The notes under the pieces: generated by a model
Databases searched by the model: none
Told to the model about the DNA's origin: nothing
The model's input: the letters and a program-made list of their open reading frames with translations, nothing else
Program-made: the position numbers and the translations under genes
Part shown: in pieces, positions 2,675 to 15,485 of the stretch
Numbering within the stretch: the first letter of the stretch is position 1
Layout of the letters: each line of letters begins with the position of its first letter
Assembly: GCA_947450545.1 (NCBI GenBank)
Contig: CANFVU010000002.1
Coordinates: 15,266 to 79,265 of the forward strand
Origin: Actinomycetota bacterium
Lineage (GTDB): Bacteria > Actinomycetota > Actinomycetes > Nanopelagicales > Nanopelagicaceae
Direction: 5' to 3'
DNA length: 64,000 bases

Positions 2675-2751
2675 GGTGGTCGTAGCTCAGCTGGTAGAGC
2701 ATCCGGTTGTGGTCCGGAATGTCGCGGGTTCGAGCCCCGTCGATCACCCCA
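2675..2751 (+). tRNA. tRNA-His (anticodon GTG), with encoded G-1 and CCA
   Basis: A hand-folded cloverleaf. The acceptor is GTGGTCG/CGATCAC with an extra 5' G. The anticodon stem is TCCGG/CCGGA with loop TTGTGGT. The T-arm is GGGTTCGAGCCCC. The discriminator is C, followed by CCA. Confidence 0.9.
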
Positions 2752-4988: not shown

Positions 4989-5064
4989 GGGTTGTTAGCT
5001 CAGTCGGTAGAGCAAGTGACTCTTAATCACTGGGTCGGGGGTTCGAATCCCTCACAACCCACCA
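4989..5064 (+). tRNA. tRNA-Lys (anticodon CTT), CCA encoded
   Basis: Acceptor GGGTTGT/ACAACCC, anticodon stem AGTGA/TCACT with loop CTCTTAA, and T-arm GGGGGTTCGAATCCCTC. Confidence 0.9.
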
Positions 5065-7078: not shown

Positions 7079-8824
7079 TTATTCACTTTGTCTCTTCATT
7101 GAAAGTGTGAAGATCGCTCCACCCTCGCTTTGTGCTTGTAAATCCCAGTTCTCTCCCCCGATGGAATCAAAGGTCTGGCTGCCCATTCCTTCTGCTCCTT
7201 CAAGAGGTCCAACTCCGTTATCGCTGACGCTCAGTATGAGACGATCTTTTGCGGCTTTGAGCGAGATCGTCACTTGGCTGGCTTTGCCATGACGAAAAGA
7301 ATTCGAAAGTGCTTCATCGAGAACTTGAGCCAACTTTTTGGTTTCTGAAGGCGTAGTCGTTTTTACTGTGCCAGTGACAGAGCTCTTTACTTTCATGAGC
7401 CCATCCCAATTTTGTTTGGCACTTCGCAAAGTTGAGTCGAGTGAATGTTCAGGTTCTTGATGGTCGATTGACCCTGGAAGATGAAGTAATTCCTGCACTT
7501 TTGCTAACTCTAATCGAATGGCGTCAACATCCCCACGTGCAGTCGCACGGTCAATAACGTTGGCGGAGTTGATTAACGCGGTCTGCATATTGGTGTGGAG
7601 GAAGCGTGCAAGGTCGCGGCTAGCTCCGGAATTGGCAACTTTTGCACCGGCGACCGCGAGCTCTTCATCTGTAATGATGGACTTCAAGCTCTCAATAACT
7701 GCTTCTTCACGCGTAAAAACAGTGATTGTCGTGCTTACGAAATAAACCAAAAAGAGAATCCACACAATATCGGTTATACGATTTGCCAAAAGATCCACAC
7801 GCAATTGAAGAATTTTATAGATCCAATTTACAACGAGGTCATTGATAATCAAGACTAAAATTGTGAAGAGAAATTTTGGATATAGCTTACGAATCTTAAA
7901 TTTGTTTATACAGAGTTCTGATAGGTAGAGAATCGCTGCGAGAACCAAGAGATGAAATGTGAATCGCTCGATGGAGTCTGGAAAATAATCACGCTTAAAA
8001 AAAGAAGGTAAGGCCGTAATTGCATATCCGATAACAATGGCACCCCGGAAAATAGTCATATTCAAGATGCCCCATTTGATAGCGCTTCGAATTCGATGCG
8101 CTCCAATTCCCTGTGCGCGTGGATCAAAAAGTGAGTGACTGAGAGGACGGATTGATGTACTTGTACGATTTCTCAGATAATTTGCAATTTGCATGCCATC
8201 GATAGCACGACCGCTCGCAATCAATTCTTGAAGAACAGCCCTTGTTTCAGCAAGGTCTTTTTCAATACGTGCGTTGATGCGGCCATCAACAATTCCATCA
8301 GGCAACGTTGTCGCTTCATCTACTGCCGCAGCGAGAGTGTTCTGCGAAAGTGCTTGGCGCAACAGCTTGTTTCGTTGAATTGAGTATCTGTCGTAGCCAG
8401 CAATGAGAAAAGTGATGATTGGGAAAAGGCAAGCACCGATTAAGAAATTGTTGCCTATGCGCTTTTCCATGTCGGTACTAAACGGCTCGGTGAGCAAACC
8501 CCATTTATAGCCAACATACGTCATCAAATAACCCTTGATTCCTCCCAAAATCCCTCCAATTACGAGGATCCACCACCAAGGGCGGGGTCGAATCGAGCGG
8601 TGACGGTAGAGCGAGATGCTCAACAAGGCAAGAAGCCCGATGGGCGGGAGGGCTGAAATCGAAGATACTAATGTCCAACGCGCGAAAGGGAAATCAGAAG
8701 CTCCAACTGAATTTCCTAAAGGAGCGGCGAGAATAACCCAAGGTAAAGCTATCAATGAGCCTCTCAACGACATTGCCCACTTGCCGCCTAAAAGGTAATC
8801 GAGTTGCTTCCGATTTGTATTCAT
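7079..8824 (-). CDS. Membrane sensor histidine kinase (atypical, two TM blocks)
   Basis: 581 aa. The C-terminus is GHKL-like (EALSNSFRHG ... LILSVSDNGVGP ... GMGSQ). Candidate phospho-His sites are IRPLSHSLF, between the two multi-TM blocks, or ARFLHTNMQTAL. It overlaps the response-regulator stop by 4 nt. Confidence 0.7.
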   Translation of the reverse strand: MNTNRKQLDYLLGGKWAMSLRGSLIALPWVILAAPLGNSVGASDFPFARWTLVSSISALPPIGLLALLSISLYRHRSIRPRPWWWILVIGGILGGIKGYLMTYVGYKWGLLTEPFSTDMEKRIGNNFLIGACLFPIITFLIAGYDRYSIQRNKLLRQALSQNTLAAAVDEATTLPDGIVDGRINARIEKDLAETRAVLQELIASGRAIDGMQIANYLRNRTSTSIRPLSHSLFDPRAQGIGAHRIRSAIKWGILNMTIFRGAIVIGYAITALPSFFKRDYFPDSIERFTFHLLVLAAILYLSELCINKFKIRKLYPKFLFTILVLIINDLVVNWIYKILQLRVDLLANRITDIVWILFLVYFVSTTITVFTREEAVIESLKSIITDEELAVAGAKVANSGASRDLARFLHTNMQTALINSANVIDRATARGDVDAIRLELAKVQELLHLPGSIDHQEPEHSLDSTLRSAKQNWDGLMKVKSSVTGTVKTTTPSETKKLAQVLDEALSNSFRHGKASQVTISLKAAKDRLILSVSDNGVGPLEGAEGMGSQTFDSIGGENWDLQAQSEGGAIFTLSMKRQSE

Positions 8825-9480
8825 CGATCTCCAGCAATCAAACCAGAAAGTTGGTTATATCTATTTGTGATTTCAACTCGTTGATTCTTCTCTTTGTTGC
8901 TTTTAATTCCAAAGATTGCAGCAAGACGAGAGATTGTTTGCTCAACAGATTTTTCACTGACATTACGAGTACTCGCAATTTGCGCATTAGATAATCCTTG
9001 GGCGACAAGTCGCATTGTTTCAATCTGAACATCGGTAAAAGATGCCAATTCAGATTTTCTTGCAGGTTCTGTGTCAACAATTTTTCCGCGCTTCACTGAA
9101 TAATCCAAGGCCTTGTTAACCGCTTTAATTAAAACTTCGACTTTTGAGACATCGCCTTTTTTCATATAAATCGAACCGGCTGGGAGTTGAGGAAGGTTGG
9201 GACGATGAAGTCGTGGATCTTCATACGATGTTAAAAGAACAATTCCAATTCTTGGAAGCACACCACGTAATGCAATTGCTAAATCGATTCCAGTCGGTCC
9301 GCTTCCTAAATTCAAATCAAGGATTGCAATATCCGGACGAATGAGTGATGCGGTCTTCATTGCAAAACTTGCTGATTGGGATTCTGCAACAACATCCATG
9401 TCTTGCATTTGTAATGCGCTAATAACCATAGAGCGCATGAAGCTGTCATCTTCGACAACCATTACTCGGGTTCTAGCCAT
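8821..9480 (-). CDS. Response regulator, NarL/LuxR family
   Basis: It has a REC domain (RVMVVEDDSFM ... ILDLNLG) and a C-terminal LuxR HTH (ETMRLVAQGLSNAQIASTRNVSEKSVEQTISRL). I prefer the start at MARTRV (ATG 9478-9480). The ORF-track start is 9498. Confidence 0.85.
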   Translation of the reverse strand: MARTRVMVVEDDSFMRSMVISALQMQDMDVVAESQSASFAMKTASLIRPDIAILDLNLGSGPTGIDLAIALRGVLPRIGIVLLTSYEDPRLHRPNLPQLPAGSIYMKKGDVSKVEVLIKAVNKALDYSVKRGKIVDTEPARKSELASFTDVQIETMRLVAQGLSNAQIASTRNVSEKSVEQTISRLAAIFGIKSNKEKNQRVEITNRYNQLSGLIAGDR

Positions 9481-9682
9481 AAAGTAATTATGGCGCACTT
9501 ATTTCAGATGTCACTACTCAAGTACTCAAGTCTATTTTGTGTACTAGGGATATCCCTACTCCGCGACTCGGTAATAGGTATGCATACTTGATGAAAAATT
9601 ACGTGCGCAATAAATAAGCGTTGACTACTCCTTGTCCCAGGGAGCGTGCCGCTCCCTATCTTTACAAGTATGGAGTAGCGCA

Positions 9683-12600
9683 ATGTCCAGGAACAAAACA
9701 ACCATGTATAAGTGGAATAAATTCTTAGATGAAAAAATAGACTGGTATCGAAAATTACGAATACCGCGATCGCAAAGGATCGCTTCTACTCTCGTTGGAG
9801 CATTGGTGCTCACGGGAATTGTTGGTGCGCCTAGCGCAATCAGTGCTGCAGAACGTAAGGCTGCAACAACTGCAATCCAATCTACAAAAGTAACAACAAC
9901 AGGTACATCCGGCACGAATGGACCTCTTACAGGCAAGACCTCTGGGACAAAGAAAGTTGTAACAAAGAACGGAACACTTGGACCTGCAACAGGTACGAAG
10001 GCAACAACACAATCAACAGATGTAGTTGTTATTCATTCAACAACAGGATCTGGATCATCAACAAAGACAACAACAAAAGTTGTTGAAGGTCCAGCGGGAG
10101 CTGCAGGAATTCAAGGACCTACAGGACTTCCAGGAATCCCTGGTATCCCCGGCCTTAATGGAACAGACGGGATAACTCCGTCAATTTCTGTCGGAACAGT
10201 TACAACAGGAAGTACTCCTGCAGTTGTTAAAGATGCGAAGTCAACACAAACAAATGCAATTTTGAATTTCGTATTACCTGAACCAGTTGCATCAAGTGGT
10301 GGAAGTGGTGGCGGAGGCGCAGGAACACCAGGTGCTCCAGGTGCTCCAGGTGCTCCCGGTGCTCCCGGTGCTCCCGGTGCAAAGGGAGACACTGGTGCGC
10401 AAGGTCCTCAAGGGGACAAGGGCGACAAGGGCGACAAGGGTGATACCGGTGCACAAGGCGAGCAAGGAATTCAAGGTATCCAAGGAAATCAAGGCGTGAA
10501 AGGTGACACCGGATCACAAGGTGCGCAGGGAATTCAAGGTGAACGCGGTTTGCAAGGCGACCAAGGAATTCAAGGTGTCAAAGGTGATACGGGATCACAA
10601 GGTGCGCAGGGAATTCAAGGTGTGAAGGGTGATAAAGGTGATACCGGATTAACTCCTTACATCACCATAGGAACCGTTCAGACTGGAGTTGCAGGAACAA
10701 ATGCAACGGTAACTGTCACTGGAACAACTGATGCGCCGATATTTAATTTCGTCATTCCTCGTGGAGCTGATGGAACGAATGGCACGAATGGTTCGGGAGG
10801 TGGTGGCATCGAGTTCTATAGTGGAAACGGATATCCATCAACTGGAACAAGTGCCGCTGCGAATATTGGTGATCTGTATTTGAGAACTGTTTCAAATCAA
10901 CAGCTTTACCAGTGTAAAACAACCACTTGCGCGACTGCTACTTCGCTATCAACTTCTGGCTTACACGGTTGGACTTTGATTACAACACTCGGAGGAAGTG
11001 GAAACTTCCGTAATTTCGATAATTACGGCGGATCACACTTCGATTCAGGAGATTCAAGCGCACAAGTACTTTCTTGTTCTAACAATCAACAGGTGGTTGG
11101 GTTAGCACTTGATAGCAATGGAGTGATGTCGGTTCGTTGTTCTTCATCGGGTTCTAGCAGCTACAGCTATAACAGTGGAGAAAACGGTAGCAATGGAAAT
11201 AGCTACGGAAATAGCAATAACTCATCAAACACCACGAGCTCGAATACTGTTTCTACAGCTTCGACTTTGGCATCAACTTCTCCAAGTGCTGTGACTGGAT
11301 TTGGAGCTCTTACGTGTGACGCGGGAACGAAGTTCTCATCGATTGCAGTCGATGCGAATGGAATTCTTTCGGTTGTTTGTGTGGCTGAGACTGTTCCAGT
11401 TCCTACGATTCAAGTAGTAAGTAACCCTGTCATCCAGACCACATCGAAGACAGAGATTGTCACTCCTGTTATTTCAGTGAACACTGTTGTTGATACAAGT
11501 ACGGTTACATCTGATTCCTCGACTGTAACTGTTTATGACACTCATACAGTGACTACGTATGGACCTCCACAAACACTCACAACGATCACAAACACAATGT
11601 TGATCCCGGGCCCACAAGGTGCTCAAGGATTAGCTGGTGCTACTGGTCCAAAGGGCGATCCTGGTGCAACCGGTCCTCAAGGACTTCAAGGTTTGCAAGG
11701 ACTTCAAGGAATTCAAGGCATCCAAGGTGCTACTGGTGCTGCTGGTAAAGATGGAACTAACGGCACTAACGGAGTTGATGGCAAAAGTATGTTGAGTGGG
11801 GCCAGAGCTCCGTATTCCAGTGATGGAAACATAGGAGACTTCTGGGTAAATACATCCACTGACATGTTGTATGGACCAAAGACATCAAGTGGCTGGGGTA
11901 CCGCCCAATTCAGCATGGTTGGAACACCAGGTGCAACTGGTCGCAGTTTGCTCAGCGGTTCACGTGTTCCTGGAGTCAATGACGGAAACGTTGGTGATTT
12001 CTGGGTAAATACAACAACCTGGTTGTTGTACGGACCAAAGGCATCAAATAACTCTTGGCCAACAGGTGTAACAATGGTTGGAAGTGCTGGTGCTACAGGT
12101 GCAACTGGAGCGAAGGGTGACACCGGAGCATCGGGTGCAACCGGTCCTGCTGGTGCAGATGGAAACACAATTCTGTCTGGTACTTCATCACCAAGCAGAA
12201 CTCTTGGTGCAGTCGGCGACTATTACATCAATACAAACACCAACATGATCTATGGACCAAAGACATCAAGTGGATGGCCTTCAAGTGGAACATCTCTTGT
12301 TGGTACTGCTGGCGCGCAAGGTGCTCAGGGATTGCAAGGTATCCAAGGAGTTGCAGGACCAACAGGTCCTACCGGTGCAACTGGAGCAACAGGACGAAGT
12401 GTTCTTAATGGAACAGGTCCGCAATCATCTGATGGAAACGTTGGTGATTTCTATATCAACACATCTACCAACAAGATCTACGGGCCAAAGACTTCGAGTG
12501 GATGGCCATCAACCGGTCTTTCAATGGTGGGAGTTGCTGGAGCTACAGGTTCTGCGGGTGCAGATGGAAACTCTGTTCTCTCTGGGACCTCGAATCCAAC

Positions 12601-13243
12601 ATCAAACGTTGGTAGCCAAGGTGACTTCTACTTCAACACCGCCAACTCAACAATGTGGGGACCAAAAGGTGCAACAAGTTGGCCTGCAGCAGGTGTAAGT
12701 CTTATTGGTGCAACTGGCGCAAAGGGTGACACCGGAGCCGCTGGTGCTGCTGGTGCTGCTGGCGTTGCTGGAGCTACAGGTGCAACTGGACCTGCTGGTA
12801 AGAGCACGCTGAATGGAACATCAGGCCCAACATCTGCTGATGGAAACGTTGGTGATTTCTTCATCAATACATCTACAAACAAGATCTATGGACCTAAGAC
12901 TGCTGGTGGATGGCCTTCAACAGGAATCTCAATGGTGGGCACCGCTGGTGTCACAACCATTGGCACAGGTACTTGTGGAGCTGGACAATTGATGAATGGA
13001 ATTTCTCTCACCGGAACATCGCTCAGCGTTCAATGCCAAACTGTTTCACAAGTAAAAATCAACGGCGTCAGCTATTTGAAGACTCAAGGCGCTTCTGACG
13101 CAGCACTCGGTGCAGTTCCAAATACCCCAATCTTCCAGGGCTACATGGAGATGAATCTCTGTGTATCCAAGAAGGGCACAATCACCATCGGAGTTTGTGC
13201 AAAGGGCACCAAGAAATTGACCGTATTCGCAAAGACAAACTAG
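9683..13243 (+). CDS. Secreted modular collagen-like repeat protein (about 1,186 aa)
   Basis: ATG at 9683 has GGAG 8 nt upstream; the track ORF opens at 9632. The signal/TM segment is IASTLVGALVLTGIVGAPSAISA. There are three long Gly-X-Y tracts (ORF aa 153-180, 223-339 and 660-717) plus five shorter interspersed ones. Two small beta-type domains follow the first two tracts. Six tandem GDF(Y/W)xNT...YGPK...GWP modules are present. No LPXTG or lipobox is seen. Confidence 0.85.
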   Translation: MSRNKTTMYKWNKFLDEKIDWYRKLRIPRSQRIASTLVGALVLTGIVGAPSAISAAERKAATTAIQSTKVTTTGTSGTNGPLTGKTSGTKKVVTKNGTLGPATGTKATTQSTDVVVIHSTTGSGSSTKTTTKVVEGPAGAAGIQGPTGLPGIPGIPGLNGTDGITPSISVGTVTTGSTPAVVKDAKSTQTNAILNFVLPEPVASSGGSGGGGAGTPGAPGAPGAPGAPGAPGAKGDTGAQGPQGDKGDKGDKGDTGAQGEQGIQGIQGNQGVKGDTGSQGAQGIQGERGLQGDQGIQGVKGDTGSQGAQGIQGVKGDKGDTGLTPYITIGTVQTGVAGTNATVTVTGTTDAPIFNFVIPRGADGTNGTNGSGGGGIEFYSGNGYPSTGTSAAANIGDLYLRTVSNQQLYQCKTTTCATATSLSTSGLHGWTLITTLGGSGNFRNFDNYGGSHFDSGDSSAQVLSCSNNQQVVGLALDSNGVMSVRCSSSGSSSYSYNSGENGSNGNSYGNSNNSSNTTSSNTVSTASTLASTSPSAVTGFGALTCDAGTKFSSIAVDANGILSVVCVAETVPVPTIQVVSNPVIQTTSKTEIVTPVISVNTVVDTSTVTSDSSTVTVYDTHTVTTYGPPQTLTTITNTMLIPGPQGAQGLAGATGPKGDPGATGPQGLQGLQGLQGIQGIQGATGAAGKDGTNGTNGVDGKSMLSGARAPYSSDGNIGDFWVNTSTDMLYGPKTSSGWGTAQFSMVGTPGATGRSLLSGSRVPGVNDGNVGDFWVNTTTWLLYGPKASNNSWPTGVTMVGSAGATGATGAKGDTGASGATGPAGADGNTILSGTSSPSRTLGAVGDYYINTNTNMIYGPKTSSGWPSSGTSLVGTAGAQGAQGLQGIQGVAGPTGPTGATGATGRSVLNGTGPQSSDGNVGDFYINTSTNKIYGPKTSSGWPSTGLSMVGVAGATGSAGADGNSVLSGTSNPTSNVGSQGDFYFNTANSTMWGPKGATSWPAAGVSLIGATGAKGDTGAAGAAGAAGVAGATGATGPAGKSTLNGTSGPTSADGNVGDFFINTSTNKIYGPKTAGGWPSTGISMVGTAGVTTIGTGTCGAGQLMNGISLTGTSLSVQCQTVSQVKINGVSYLKTQGASDAALGAVPNTPIFQGYMEMNLCVSKKGTITIGVCAKGTKKLTVFAKTN
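10328..10444 (+). repeat. In-frame 9-bp tandem repeats inside the collagen-like gene
   Basis: CCAGGTGCT/CCCGGTGCT occurs five times, followed by a sixth, variant unit CCCGGTGCA (10328-10381, encoding PGAPGAPGAPGAPGAPGA). GACAAGGG(C/T) occurs three times (about 10412-10444, encoding GDKGDKGDK). A further imperfect ~81-bp duplication gives GDTGSQGAQGIQG twice. Confidence 0.9.
11783..12949 (+). repeat. Six tandem ~46-aa protein modules separated by short Gly-X-Y linkers
   Basis: The module pattern is S(V/L/I)L(S/N)G...P....G..GD(F/Y)(W/Y/F)(V/I/F)NT.T...(Y/W)GPK....(W)P..G.S(M/L)(V/I)G. It occurs at ORF aa 718-764, 771-817, 846-891, 922-967, 980-1026 and 1057-1104. Modules 4 and 6 are nearly identical at the DNA level. 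Confidence 0.9.
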
Positions 13244-13268: not shown

Positions 13269-14150
13269 ATGGCAACAGAAAAGAAAGCAGCTGTGAAGAA
13301 AACGGCTGTCAAGAAGGCTCCGGTTAAAAAAGCGGCTGTCAAAAAGACCGTTGCAAAGAAAGCGGTAGCTAAGAAAGCAACTGTTAAGAAGGTTGCATCG
13401 ACAACGACGACATCGGTCACGACCGACAAGTTTGCCTTTCCTCTTTCATTTGAGGAGGAGCTAGCGAAACCCTTCATTCCAGCTGGAATAAAGCCAGAAC
13501 CAATGACAGGCAAAGTCATTCCTCGATCTTTTGTGGGACAACTTGAAAGTGCACAATTTGGAAAGATTGAAGATAACCGCAAGAAGACAACACAACGTTT
13601 TGGAAAGCTTGGATTAATCTTCGCTTTTGTTGCGACCGCAGTTTTGTCTGCAGGCATCACATTCTTTATTACCAAGCCAGCACCTATTCAGTTCTCTGCG
13701 CAGACCACCGAACAAGCAAAAATTTCTGGTGGTGTTCTGCTGACTGAAGTAGAACTCAAAGCTGCTGTTAAGAAATTGAAGCGCACCGTCTTCTGGTCAG
13801 GTCCAATCAAGGATGCTAAATACACCTTGAACGCCAGCGACCTCAAGCAGATCTATGTTCGCTACCTTCCAAAAGGCAAAGGCCTTGAGGATGTCAAGCG
13901 TAATTACCGTGTTATTGCTACCTACGTTGTGCCCGGCGCTTTTGCCTCGACAGCGGCGGCTGGCAATCAATCAAATGGAGTAACGCTTTCACGAGCCGAT
14001 GGAGCTGTCGTTTATTACAACAAGCTTGAGCCAACTAACGTTTATCTTGCTCAGAAAGATTCTGACTTCCAGATCGAAGTTTTCGATCCAGATCCAACGA
14101 CTTCTCTCCAACTCGCCACTACGCTTAAGACCGTTATTCCGGTTCTGTAG
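13269..14150 (+). CDS. Single-pass membrane protein with N-terminal lysine/alanine-rich (histone H1/HU-tail-like) repeats
   Basis: 293 aa, with a strong SD (AAGGAGGA, 13256-13263). The N-terminus is ATEKKAAVKKTAVKKAPVKKAAVKKTVAKKAVAKKATVKKVAS. The TM segment is LGLIFAFVATAVLSAGITFFIT (aa ~113-135). A C-terminal ~155-aa extracytoplasmic domain follows. Confidence 0.75.
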   Translation: MATEKKAAVKKTAVKKAPVKKAAVKKTVAKKAVAKKATVKKVASTTTTSVTTDKFAFPLSFEEELAKPFIPAGIKPEPMTGKVIPRSFVGQLESAQFGKIEDNRKKTTQRFGKLGLIFAFVATAVLSAGITFFITKPAPIQFSAQTTEQAKISGGVLLTEVELKAAVKKLKRTVFWSGPIKDAKYTLNASDLKQIYVRYLPKGKGLEDVKRNYRVIATYVVPGAFASTAAAGNQSNGVTLSRADGAVVYYNKLEPTNVYLAQKDSDFQIEVFDPDPTTSLQLATTLKTVIPVL

Positions 14151-14181: not shown

Positions 14182-14958
14182 ATGGCTTCCAACAATGATC
14201 TGATTGCAGCGCAAGTTCTTGCTGAGCAATTGACCAACTGGGCAATTCAATCTGACGTCACTGATGATCCCTACGTTCTAGGGCTCTTGAACGCAGTGGA
14301 AACTCGCAAAGGCCTGGATATGTGGTCGACTCTCGATCCCTTCGAGATGCTCCCCCATCCTGAAGGACGTGCAGGTGTACGTGAACTTCGATGGGGACAC
14401 ATCATCGCGATCTTGCGAAACATTCTTGTCTTCGTTCCCGTTGCTCTCACCTGGGAAGCAGTAAGCCAAGCAACAAAAGCTTTCTCAACATTCGTTGAAC
14501 TCAACGGGGCCACAACAGTGAATTTCCTCGAGTTCTGGCAGAACGGTTACAAAATTCTTCCTTCGTTCTGGCAGATCGCCAATATTGCTCAAGTCGACTT
14601 CTTCATCATCCTTGCCGTAATTGTTATGTCTCTCGTTGCTTCAGGAATGAATGAGCGCGGAAATAGAGCACACGATAAAGAGGTCGAATTCCTTGAAAAG
14701 GATCGCATCCGCCTCGGCATTTTGATTATGGAATACCTCTTTACTAAGGGGCGTATCACTCCAGCAAATATCAATACCAAACTTGCCTCATCCATTCGCA
14801 ATCTCATCGCTGCATCTGGATCTCTTTCTGAAACAACCCGCCGAATTGAACGCACGAACAAAACGCTCTTCTCTCAAAAAGGTGTTCGTAAGGAAATCAA
14901 AAAGCTTTATGCAGAGGGCGAAAGTAAAGCTCTCGAATATCGAGAGAAAAACGAATAA
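14182..14958 (+). CDS. Two-TM membrane protein with charged/coiled-coil C-terminal region, unknown function
   Basis: 258 aa. The predicted TMs are IIAILRNILVFVPVALTW and VDFFIILAVIVMSLVASGM. The C-terminal ~100 aa are rich in K/E/R heptad-like sequence. It lies 31 nt after the previous gene and 5 nt before the next. Confidence 0.7.
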   Translation: MASNNDLIAAQVLAEQLTNWAIQSDVTDDPYVLGLLNAVETRKGLDMWSTLDPFEMLPHPEGRAGVRELRWGHIIAILRNILVFVPVALTWEAVSQATKAFSTFVELNGATTVNFLEFWQNGYKILPSFWQIANIAQVDFFIILAVIVMSLVASGMNERGNRAHDKEVEFLEKDRIRLGILIMEYLFTKGRITPANINTKLASSIRNLIAASGSLSETTRRIERTNKTLFSQKGVRKEIKKLYAEGESKALEYREKNE

Positions 14959-14963
14959 CCAAA

Positions 14964-15485
14964 ATGCGCCGTCGCCCCGCCACCCGTCCTCAAGAGGACA
15001 CAACCGCCCAAGCAGGTTGGATGTATGCCGACTTGTTCTTGGCGCTCATGGTAGTTTTTTTGGCGACAATCTCATTCGTGCCAACATTTAATGGCAATCA
15101 AAATCTCTTACAAAAACAGGATCAGCTCGGCGCAACCGAATTTACCTATTCTCAGATCTATAACAAGCATCTCGATATTCTTTATGACAACTTCGATTCT
15201 GCGCTGATTAAGCAAGATGTAGACCAATTCATTGCACGCGAAAAGTTGCCATCCACAACCGATGTCGTTTTCGCTCAAGTTATTGGCGGATATGACTCTC
15301 GCACAGAACAGCCAACAACGGCGATTTCAAGGGCTGTGGCCTTCTCAAATCGTCTCGATAAAGAGTTGCCTGAACTACTCAAGCACTCAGCCTCGACTAT
15401 GAGTTCGAGCAAGACAATTGACCCTAATCAAATCGTTCTGCGTCTGACTTTCGCCCAAAAAGTGGTCGTCAGCAAGAACCGATAA
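14964..15485 (+). CDS. MotB/OmpA-like membrane protein (stator-type TM segment with conserved Asp)
   Basis: 173 aa. A basic N-terminus is followed by AGWMYADLFLALMVVFLATISF, which matches the MotB-type TM segment (E. coli MotB [20 protein letters not shown]). This includes the Asp (D23, nt 15030-15032). The C-terminus has weak OmpA-like traces (AISRAVAFSNRL, NQIVLRLTF). Confidence 0.5.
   Translation: MRRRPATRPQEDTTAQAGWMYADLFLALMVVFLATISFVPTFNGNQNLLQKQDQLGATEFTYSQIYNKHLDILYDNFDSALIKQDVDQFIAREKLPSTTDVVFAQVIGGYDSRTEQPTTAISRAVAFSNRLDKELPELLKHSASTMSSSKTIDPNQIVLRLTFAQKVVVSKNR

Follow-up and report, generated by a model that had tools for sequence, protein, structure and literature searches.

A MotB/ZorB-like membrane protein and its partner of a new family in Nanopelagicales, a candidate ion-conducting complex

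Can a MotB-like protein operate with a partner that resembles none of the known motor subunits? To our knowledge, every established ion-driven 5:2 motor has an A subunit of either the MotA/ExbB type or the GldL type, and most of these motors come from diderm bacteria. The question is raised by two adjacent genes, here called A and B, in a stretch of DNA of 64,000 nucleotides (the window) from the Nanopelagicales, an order of non-motile bacteria. The original prediction saw two possibilities, a stator-type pair that had escaped recognition and whose A subunit is novel, or a membrane anchor that derives from MotB and has lost its motor function. Our analysis supports a MotB/ZorB-like B with a genuinely novel partner A, and to that extent the proposal held; a link from A to MotA, ExbB, ZorA or GldL was looked for and not found.

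Layout and spread of the locus

Genes A and B lie on the plus strand with 5 nt between them, and an ORF check returned both reading frames at the coordinates that had been predicted. The features of the locus, in window coordinates, are the following.

7079-9498, minus strand: two-component system, divergent from the block that contains A and B (Pfam HATPase_c, Response_reg, GerE)
7079-8824, minus strand: histidine kinase of this system
8821-9498, minus strand: LuxR-type response regulator of this system
9632-13243, plus strand: collagen-repeat surface protein gene that opens the co-oriented block (Pfam Collagen, E 4.9e-38)
13269-14150, plus strand: gene for a 293-aa protein, 5′ of gene A and co-oriented with it (ORF, family scans, relatives' loci)
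14182-14958, plus strand: gene A, a 258-aa ORF encoding a two-helix membrane protein of a previously undescribed family; residues 1-60 are the N-terminal cytoplasmic domain
14401-14472, plus strand: A helix 1, residues 74-97, IIAILRNILVFVPVALTWEAVSQA
14521-14550, plus strand: A outer-loop motif, N114-F-L-E-F-W119-Q-N-G-Y
14575-14652, plus strand: A helix 2, residues 132-157, running on into the cytoplasm to about residue 190
14653-14955, plus strand: A cytoplasmic helical, coiled-coil-like tail
14964-15485, plus strand: gene B, a 173-aa ORF encoding a MotB/ZorB-like single-pass protein (basic N-terminus, Asp-bearing membrane helix, variable linker, alpha/beta outer domain, in this order)
15018-15083, plus strand: B membrane helix, W19-P40, WMYADLFLALMVVFLATISFVP, with the D23 codon at 15030-15032
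15144-15464, plus strand: B outer domain, residues 61-167, with elements in the order beta-alpha-beta-alpha-beta-beta

The collagen-repeat ORF is listed at 1203 aa; its equivalents in relatives measure 503-929 aa, and the true start is probably internal to the listed ORF. The 293-aa protein has a single membrane helix, its outer domain of about 140 aa is conserved, and its N-terminus is rich in Lys and Ala. About half of the Nanopelagicales loci have a homologue directly 5′ of A, and the gene stands alongside the pair only in loci of the window type. Scans of this protein against Pfam, NCBIfam, PADLOC and PHROG gave nothing above threshold, and a comparison with the PDB gave only low-complexity, histone-like matches. 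GC content is flat across the A-B region.

The two genes stay together elsewhere, as had been expected. A precedes B in all 43 loci in which both genes are readable, with a spacing of 5 nt or less or with overlapping genes, and these loci cover the Nanopelagicales and Acidimicrobiia-like contigs. Six complete Nanopelagicaceae chromosomes, all streamlined at 1.35-1.47 Mb, carry one copy each, in a conserved position. Most of the loci are next to signalling genes: a response-regulator homologue adjoins the block in loci L001-L005, L008, L010, L014 and L021, and more distant relatives adjoin vWA, PP2C, kinase-like and FHA genes, with one lying near an AbiEii gene. Genes for surface proteins also recur near the pair, among them a collagen-like protein and a SipW-type signal peptidase cluster, and variable surface proteins are found nearby. 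Searches of the 64-kb window by tblastn, an insensitive method for this purpose, gave chance-level matches only to MotA, ExbB, TolQ, MotB, ExbD and TolR. Covariation between the A and B helices was set aside as evidence, as variation among the 39 unique locus pairs tracks lineage only.

Protein B

B has 725 homologues, none of them named. Its N-terminus reads MRRRPATRPQEDTTAQAG-W19MYAD23LFLALMVVFLATISFVP, and the W19-MYAD23-LFLALMVVFL segment singled out by the original prediction is present in the translation. The protein has a single hydrophobic peak, at residues 24-35, and D23, which lies near the cytoplasmic end of what would be its only membrane helix, looks essential: the aspartate is invariant in 183 of 183 sequences, in keeping with the conservation among relatives that had been anticipated. 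Mean column entropy is 0.25 bit in the helix versus 1.6 in the outer domain and is low on all faces, as expected for a helix that is fully enclosed by protein.

The N-terminal profile of B, compared with 177,635 PDB sequences, found two matches only, both to ZorB and both with the aspartate aligned (8qyd_F, E 0.0059; 8vvn_B, E 0.71). Apart from one unrelated chemistry article, only the paper on Zorya modularity cites the second of these structures, PDB 8vvn. By hhalign, D23 falls on D32 of Escherichia coli MotB (P ~1e-3). The only recurrent weak family in Pfam is MotB_plug, which matches 54 of 121 B members with a best E of 0.059, all below threshold, and which has no match at E<=1 in the B protein of the window; Pfam ExbD gives a weak match in one of the 121. 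All of the MotB-type matches are short, about 20 residues, and lie below curated thresholds, and the window protein has nothing above threshold in Pfam, NCBIfam, PADLOC or PHROG. In a protein search at E<=10 with a diverse B alignment, the 120 matches listed are all close relatives, with no bridge to annotated MotB or OmpA proteins. These results bear out the MotB-like character that had been ascribed to the helix; as to a significant profile match to the MotB or OmpA families, the MotB side is borderline (ZorB at E 0.0059, MotB_plug at E 0.059) and the OmpA side is empty at the level of sequence.

The AlphaFold model of B has a pLDDT of 76. Residues 41-60, which follow the membrane helix, vary more than any other part of B (entropy 2.5 bits), and residues 43-60 have a pLDDT below 50 in the model; neither the entropy nor the model revealed an amphipathic plug helix of the MotB type in this position. 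The outer domain beyond this linker was said to hold weak OmpA-like remnants, a description that survives for the fold and fails for the sequence. Its top Foldseek matches are OmpA-like (3td4, E 1.1e-4; OprF, 5u1h; the SiiA peptidoglycan-binding domain, 6qvp), with TM-scores of 0.45-0.52 from one monomer model, in which Rid/YjgF and chorismate-mutase folds score nearly as well. Pfam, an hmmsearch of the PDB and an hhalign comparison with five E. coli OmpA-like domains yielded no OmpA sequence match, and we do not claim OmpA family membership given the empty result against the alignment of those five domains; the B profile against Pal alone gives a weak match in register (P 0.04). A canonical OmpA peptidoglycan-binding motif was not found in B. 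E115 (178 of 183 sequences) and R123 (169 of 183) are conserved, but an attempt to map them onto the canonical Asp/Arg pair gave no correspondence. The model thus suggests an OmpA-like topology for the outer domain, supported at the level of the fold only, and the domain probably holds the cell wall, with the flexible linker joining it to the membrane helix.

Protein A

A is a member of no known family, and its family has not been described before; a literature search returned no description of it, and the accession PF28544 appears in no paper. The protein has 411 close homologues, none named, and the family comprises 780 representative clusters at E<=1e-3. Scans of the window protein against Pfam, NCBIfam, PADLOC and PHROG gave no match, and neither it nor 17 relatives match any Pfam or NCBIfam family, including PF01618 (MotA_ExbB). 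Narrow and broad A profiles found nothing in hhalign comparisons with E. coli MotA, ExbB and TolQ, in line with the absence of a MotA/ExbB/TolQ signature that had been noted from the sequence. A profile of the membrane core matched only an RNA polymerase subunit in the PDB, which we discarded as chance.

As predicted at the outset, A has two membrane helices and a long helical tail. Hydrophobicity peaks twice, near residues 80-85 and 138-149, and the AlphaFold model (pLDDT 79.7) is all-helical, with helix 2 forming one long helix from residue 132 to residue 190, followed by two tail helices. A Foldseek search with this model returned no match at E<=0.001. No membrane-motor proteins other than ExbB and TolQ recur among its weak matches; the scores of these two, with probabilities of up to 0.54 at E 0.5-2 and TM ~0.3, are too weak to serve as evidence of homology. 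GldL and PorL are absent from the top 50 Foldseek matches and from the PDB profile search.

Helix 1 carries the near-invariant motif R79-N80-x3-F84-x-P86-V-A-x-T90-W91. Among 136 representatives of 50%-identity clusters, R79, P86 and W91 are conserved at 100%, F84 and T90 at 99% and N80 at 98%. Every face of this helix is conserved, and the B helix is its most likely packing partner. In helix 2 conservation has an i, i+3/4, i+7 periodicity that leaves one face conserved and the other variable, and this helix is probably peripheral; D139, near its outer end, is Asp in 116 of the 136 representatives, and 123 of them (90%) have Thr or Ser at position 150. The conserved Pro and Thr residues that were to be looked for in the helices of the partner are thus present, as P86, T90 and position 150. 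Between the membrane helices, the outer-loop motif (F115 99%, L116 93%, F118 94%, W119 99%) is predicted to form a short amphipathic helix, modelled at residues 115-121.

The tail is 60-170 residues longer in most relatives, as judged from alignments. It gives weak coiled-coil matches only, none significant, among them the ZorA tail of PDB 8qyk_A at E 3.9. On the tail of a distant relative (P0410), the NCBIfam model antiphage_ZorA_1 reaches E 0.017, with 13 bits against a cut-off of 190.

Possible workings of the pair and comparison with known motors

We hold with moderate confidence that A and B assemble into an ion-conducting complex of the Mot/Zorya kind, in which A is a minimal subunit of a new type. 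In such a complex, B, with its short basic N-terminus in the cytoplasm, would be distantly related to the B subunits of ion-driven 5:2 motors (MotB, PomB, ZorB), and A would be its obligate partner in one membrane assembly. The in-out-in hairpin of A would correspond to the core hairpin of MotA, ExbB, ZorA and GldL, with helix 2 extending as a long helix into the coiled-coil tail, as in ExbB and ZorA. The pattern of conserved helix faces in B and in A helices 1 and 2 may point, indirectly, to an A5B2 stoichiometry in which a ring of A would enclose the B helices. The ion path would run between D23 in B and the polar residues R79/N80, T90 and T/S150 in A; the passage of ions would shift A relative to B, which would be held at the wall, and partners would receive this movement through the N-domain and the tail that A has in the cytoplasm. 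The recurrent signalling neighbours (in the window a histidine kinase with its response regulator, in distant relatives vWA, PP2C, kinase-like and FHA proteins) suggest a sensor or transducer of envelope state in the style of ZorAB rather than motility. More tentatively, the pair may represent an unrecognised family of ion-driven 5:2-type motors in non-motile, streamlined, monoderm Actinomycetota, with a minimal two-helix A unrelated in sequence to MotA, ExbB or GldL, that couples membrane potential and wall state to phospho-signalling (two-component or kinase/PP2C) via a short ZorA-like tail. Counting against an ion-conducting complex of this kind, A has no detectable sequence relation and no significant structural relation to MotA, ExbB, TolQ, ZorA or GldL; the shortness of the MotB-type matches of B, the close scores of other folds for its outer domain and the missing OmpA motif weigh on the same side.

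An invariant arginine in the partner helix is not a feature of MotA or ExbB, and it could equally form a static salt bridge to D23. A rather doubtful alternative is that the complex conducts no ions and is a static, wall-tethered scaffold or sensor: B would be a MotB-derived anchor, D23 and R79 a buried structural salt bridge, and the cytoplasmic domains of A a platform that recruits either signalling proteins or factors for the assembly of surface proteins. The invariance of both R79 and D23 and their similar depth, each about five residues into its helix from the cytoplasmic side, fit such a bridge, as the lack of any MotA/ExbB signature in A and the adjoining surface-protein (collagen-like, SipW-type signal peptidase cluster) and signalling genes fit such a scaffold. 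A plain anchor, however, would have no need of an invariant Pro and Thr, of a Thr/Ser in helix 2 or of a B helix that is almost completely frozen, and the closest sequence relatives of that helix are active motors. A charge pair can, moreover, belong to a working cycle, as the Arg-Glu pair does in GldLM.

It is improbable that A and B serve as membrane core to an anti-phage or conflict system like Zorya, sensing envelope damage and signalling via the A tail to neighbouring effectors. Such a role would account for the ZorB identity of both PDB matches of the B helix, the lack of a plug in B, the weak ZorA-tail matches of the helical A tail, the vWA, PP2C, kinase-like and FHA modules beside distant relatives (and AbiEii near one) and the variable surface proteins nearby. 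Yet neither protein has a PADLOC match or an NCBIfam match to ZorA or ZorB above threshold, and no nuclease or helicase effector of the ZorC, ZorD or ZorE kind adjoins the pair, either in the window or among relatives from the Nanopelagicales. One copy at conserved positions in six Nanopelagicaceae chromosomes, with flat GC content across the region, has the look of a housekeeping pair and not of a mobile defence island.

Least probable of all is a chance or convergent likeness of a hydrophobic helix to MotB and ZorB, with the pair an unrelated two-component membrane system such as a transporter accessory or an envelope biogenesis factor: no match exceeds a curated family threshold, the likeness spans only about 20 residues and the profile comparison with the five E. 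coli OmpA-like domains is empty, but the only two matches among 177,635 PDB sequences are both stator-type B subunits with the aspartate in register, and the structure model independently shows B arranged as MotB is, from a basic N-terminus through the Asp helix and the linker to an OmpA-like fold.

The locus joins a clearly MotB/ZorB-like B to a partner that is under strong constraint and founds a new family. The pair is widespread in the acI/Nanopelagicales and Acidimicrobiia-like lineages, which rank among the most abundant bacteria of fresh water, have very small genomes and lack flagella. If it is a motor, it would widen the known structural range of these machines, extend them to signalling or envelope sensing in monoderms and, with about 250 aa in its A subunit, provide a model small enough to be tractable. 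Were it an anchor only, a stator B subunit would have found a new use beside an unrelated partner. In both cases, two large families of 'hypothetical proteins' acquire a testable role.

The pair shares some traits with each known system. In ExbD and TolR, as in B, the small subunit has one helix and this helix carries an Asp, and ExbB and TolQ resemble A in their long helices from the membrane into the cytoplasm; unlike ExbBD and TolQR, A-B has no recognised TonB or TolA partner and its host no outer membrane. GldL and PorL share with A two membrane helices followed by a cytoplasmic domain, the topology being the only point in common. We know of no other established 5:2 motor A subunit than the GldL type with just two membrane helices and a cytoplasmic domain. 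An interhelical charge pair is plausible in both GldLM and A-B, but with reversed polarity: in A-B the Arg belongs to A and the Asp to B, in GldLM the Glu belongs to GldL and the Arg to GldM. The outer parts differ as well, a long periplasmic rod in GldM and a compact alpha/beta domain, OmpA-like in the model, in B, and so does the phylum.

MotB and PomB share with B the order of parts and an aspartate aligned with D23 (D32 in MotB); B members give weak MotB_plug matches, the outer domain of B may have an OmpA-like fold as theirs does, and the MotAB genes are, like A and B, adjacent and tightly coupled. B lacks the plug helix of MotB, however, and A has two helices against the four of MotA, with neither PF01618 nor a torque-generating loop.

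ZorA differs from A in having three membrane helices rather than two; A has no MotA/ExbB-type domain and no ZorA family match, and its tail measures about 100-165 aa against about 500 in ZorA. No ZorC, ZorD or ZorE lies near A-B, which occurs in a monoderm actinobacterial host among signalling neighbours. ZorAB (8qyd, 8vvn) nevertheless provides the closest sequence to the B helix (FWISYADLMTAMMVLFL in B, GWMYADLFLALMVVFL in ZorB, with the Asp aligned). Both B and ZorB have an outer domain of a wall-binding type, putative in B, and no MotB-type plug, and the last membrane helix of ZorA, like that of A, runs on as a cytoplasmic helical tail. In ZorB the plug is likewise reported absent, Asp26 touches Thr and Ser residues of ZorA, and ZorAB signals through its tail (PMC11946911); in A, T90 and T/S150 are conserved.

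Genomic setting of the A–B pair

Genes A and B close a block of four co-oriented genes separated by short gaps (collagen-repeat, 293-aa, A and B). The features of the region are:

2676-2751 (+): tRNA-His(GTG), by Rfam
4989-5064 (+): tRNA-Lys(CTT), by Rfam
7079-8824 (−): histidine kinase, 581 aa, ATPase domain alone recognised; divergent from the A–B block
8821-9498 (−): LuxR-type response regulator; divergent from the A–B block
9632-13243 (+): collagen-repeat protein, 1203-aa ORF (Pfam Collagen, E 5e-38)
13269-14150 (+): 293-aa single-pass protein, Lys/Ala-rich N-terminus
14182-14958 (+): gene A, 258 aa
14964-15485 (+): gene B, 173 aa, starting 5 nt past the A stop codon
15529-16437 (+): UPF0176/rhodanese protein (Pfam UPF0176_N, Rhodanese, Rhodanese_C), 43 nt downstream of B

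GC content is flat over the region, and no convincing terminator or promoter was found within the four-gene block. At least nine related loci have a homologue of the response regulator adjoining A–B, and this suggests that the block is under two-component control. In related loci the UPF0176/rhodanese gene does not follow B, so it is unlikely to belong to the unit. The two tRNAs are the sole Rfam matches in the window. The collagen-repeat protein has a hydrophobic segment near its N-terminus and recurring GDF(W/Y)(V/I)NT...YGPK motifs; tandem repeats of 9, 18 and 45 nt lie within its gene, and its counterparts in relatives span 503-929 aa, marking it as a fast-changing surface protein. The N-terminus of the 293-aa protein, of histone-H1-like low complexity, is encoded by a 15-nt tandem repeat (13281-13390). 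Its well-conserved outer domain (~140 aa) matched no known family or PDB sequence, and the protein accompanies A–B solely in loci of the window's type.

Scanning for the pattern in a single genome of each species returned 37 loci. All come from Nanopelagicales or acI-type actinobacteria (Ca. Planktophila, Nanopelagicaceae) except for two metagenome bins that carry a Streptomycetaceae label; six complete chromosomes (1.35-1.47 Mb) are among them, with one match apiece. A is followed by a B homologue in the same orientation wherever the contig extends far enough. The original prediction had called for synteny in other genomes, and searching by motif gave 43 loci (39 distinct pairs) in which the B motif comes after that of A, including distant pairs at 25-32% identity. 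In relatives the two genes lie a few nucleotides apart or overlap.

What surrounds the pair differs by lineage. Loci of the window's type carry a two-component system, a collagen-like protein and a homologue of the 293-aa protein. In a second Nanopelagicaceae type, A–B stands alone; its neighbours are a signal peptidase I of archaeal type (TIGR02228, scoring above cut-off), a 2778-aa giant protein, a collagen-like protein and several proteins that are secreted. Acidimicrobiia-like relatives have a 500-770-aa membrane protein upstream of A–B, with weak kinase catalytic-loop matches. Since the surroundings vary while A–B stays, the pair is the invariant unit, with phospho-signalling and cell-surface proteins as the recurrent theme around it.

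One locus of the second type (L012 3400-18560, Ca. Nanopelagicaceae MRE-185) combines the TIGR02228 signal peptidase, three small secreted proteins and a 529-aa multi-pass protein with the collagen-like protein and the 2778-aa giant surface protein, and resembles a cluster for surface fibres or secretion. In the distant, Acidimicrobiia-like loci L046, L047/L048, L052 and L054, the 500-770-aa membrane protein always precedes A–B, and vWA, PP2C and kinase-like genes adjoin the pair, with FHA in three of the four contexts. An AbiEii gene lies near one Acidimicrobiia-like A–B locus.

Protein B: membrane helix and outer domain

Translation bore out the N-terminus first described for B, MRRRPATRPQEDTTAQAG-WMYAD23LFLALMVVFLATISFVP, with its Asp-bearing helix. 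B has 725 homologues at E<=1e-3, none of them named, and went unrecognised by Pfam, NCBIfam, PADLOC and PHROGs. Across 183 distinct relatives, mean column entropy is 0.25 bit over W19-P40, as against 2.5 bits in the linker (41-60) and 1.6 bits in the outer domain. W19, Y21, L24 and F32 are invariant, as is D23 (183/183), the residue whose conservation was originally in question. Every face of the helix is conserved, which is unusual for a lipid-exposed helix and would be expected of one wrapped by protein. One B homologue (P0017) is labelled by NCBI as from a Crocinitomicaceae (Bacteroidota) metagenome bin; its contig is probably mis-binned, as the protein has the exact helix motif and shares 46% identity with the B family of actinobacteria.

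Three independent sequence comparisons group the helix with those of stator B subunits. When 121 B members were each scanned against Pfam at E<=10, MotB_plug was matched by 54 (best E 0.059) and any other family by at most five. By hhalign, the B family profile aligned GW--MYADLFLALMVVFL with E. coli MotB, placing D23 on D32 (P about 1e-3). A profile of the first 48 residues of B alone, searched by hmmsearch against 177,635 distinct PDB sequences, found only two: 8qyd_F (E 0.0059), the ZorB of E. coli Zorya, and 8vvn_B (E 0.71), labelled 'MotB-related protein'. The latter we take to be another ZorB because, apart from a single unrelated paper in chemistry, only the paper on Zorya modularity cites the entry. 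The proposed MotB likeness holds in that the Asp aligns with MotB D32 and with ZorB, but every match falls below curated family thresholds. For this reason, and because the match spans only ~20 residues, homology of the helix to those of stator B subunits is probable, not proven.

In the AlphaFold model of B (pLDDT 76), the membrane helix (14-37) is followed by a disordered linker and an outer domain (61-167) of beta-alpha-beta-alpha-beta-beta order. Its best PDB matches by Foldseek were OmpA-like peptidoglycan-binding domains (TM-scores 0.45-0.52), comprising A. baumannii OmpA (3td4, E 1.1e-4), OprF (5u1h), Salmonella OmpA and the peptidoglycan-binding domain of SiiA, a MotB-like protein; Rid/YjgF and chorismate-mutase-type sandwiches scored almost equally. 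The OmpA-like remnants of the original prediction find an echo at the top of the Foldseek list, but sequence searches did not confirm them. Neither Pfam nor the PDB profile search found an OmpA domain, the B profile matched nothing when compared with five aligned E. coli OmpA-like domains, and the alignment with Pal was in register and weak (P 0.04). The order of parts is that of MotB and ZorB, but binding of B to the cell wall is putative. B has no conserved plug helix; nor does ZorB (PMC11946911).

Protein A: a two-helix family

As first described, A has two hydrophobic segments and a long helical tail. It has 411 close homologues, and searching its profile against 1.84 billion cluster representatives gave 780 clusters for the family at E<=1e-3 (292 when the limit is E<=1e-10). 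None of ten clusters looked up bore a functional name; one member was labelled Ilumatobacteraceae. Nanopelagicales forms are mostly 318-323 aa, with a longer tail, and distant forms, of 400-497 aa, carry an acidic linker and, at the N-terminus, a Cys-rich motif resembling a zinc ribbon. In four members of 440-480 aa (P0272, P0285, P0318 and P0410), this extra motif gave sub-threshold matches alone, to Pfam Zn_Ribbon_1/DZR and to NCBIfam 4Cys_prefix_kin; in P0318 and P0410, which were aligned, a long acidic disordered linker follows it. Another homologue, P0181, carries Pfam PF28544.1 in precomputed annotation. This accession is absent from the Pfam release scanned and from the literature searched, and a newer release may already have a model touching the A family.

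Among 136 full-length representatives, R79, P86 and W91 are conserved in 100%, F84, T90, F115 and W119 in 99%, N80 in 98%, R175 in 94%, Thr or Ser at position 150 in 90% and D139 in 86%; P86, T90 and Thr/Ser150 are of the Pro and Thr type that had been sought in the partner helices. Conservation extends over every face of helix 1 (79-94) and over a single face of helix 2 (period i, i+3/4, i+7), a pattern that fits helix 1 lying inside a complex and helix 2 at its periphery. In the AlphaFold model (pLDDT 79.7), helix 2 runs unbroken to residue 190 and two tail helices follow.

Pfam and NCBIfam found no family in the window's A or in 17 relatives, and hhalign with A profiles, including a broad one, gave no match to E. 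coli MotA, ExbB or TolQ, in keeping with the original view that A carries no such signature. The membrane-core profile found no sequence relative in the PDB, and the model retrieved nothing at E<=0.001 by Foldseek. A is a new family, and no known family related to it was found. ExbB/TolQ recurred among Foldseek matches too weak to support homology (E 0.5-2, probability <=0.54, TM about 0.3), and the ZorA tail appeared twice among weak coiled-coil matches to the A tail, without significance.

A possible stator-like complex and its rivals

A Mot/Zorya-like membrane complex is the most economical reading of A–B, and we give even chances to its being ion-conducting and stator-like. B would retain an ion-binding helix and a wall-directed outer domain, and A would be a new, minimal two-helix subunit. 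R79 of A and D23 of B lie at similar depth near the cytoplasmic leaflet, and might form a switchable charge pair of the working cycle. They could equally form an assembly salt bridge in a static anchor or sensor, the main rival, which we consider possible though doubtful given the Pro and Thr positions conserved in A. No MotA, ExbB or TolQ relative was found within the 64-kb window, an insensitive test.

As to output, the stator-like complex could signal on envelope state, as has been proposed for ZorAB; this is suggested by the signalling neighbours and by A's cytoplasmic N-domain and tail. A true Zorya-like defence role would suit the ZorB match and sits less well with B going unrecognised by PADLOC; we regard it as unlikely. 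Chance resemblance of the B helix to stator B subunits would fit the short length of the match, but both PDB matches are stator-type B subunits with the Asp in register, and it is the least credible reading.

We found no description of the A–B pair in the literature searched. The description that suits B best is that of a new, divergent protein of the MotB/ZorB kind, and A and B together are a new variant of stator-type pairing, which would be categorically new only if A built a motor whose fold is related neither to MotA/ExbB nor to GldL. A shares its in-out-in topology with the core hairpin of MotA, ExbB, ZorA and GldL, and the ion path of these motors is lined by Pro, Thr and Thr/Ser-type positions such as A conserves. 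In GldLM, an Arg-Glu pair serves as a switchable charge pair in the working cycle, a possible parallel to R79 and D23.
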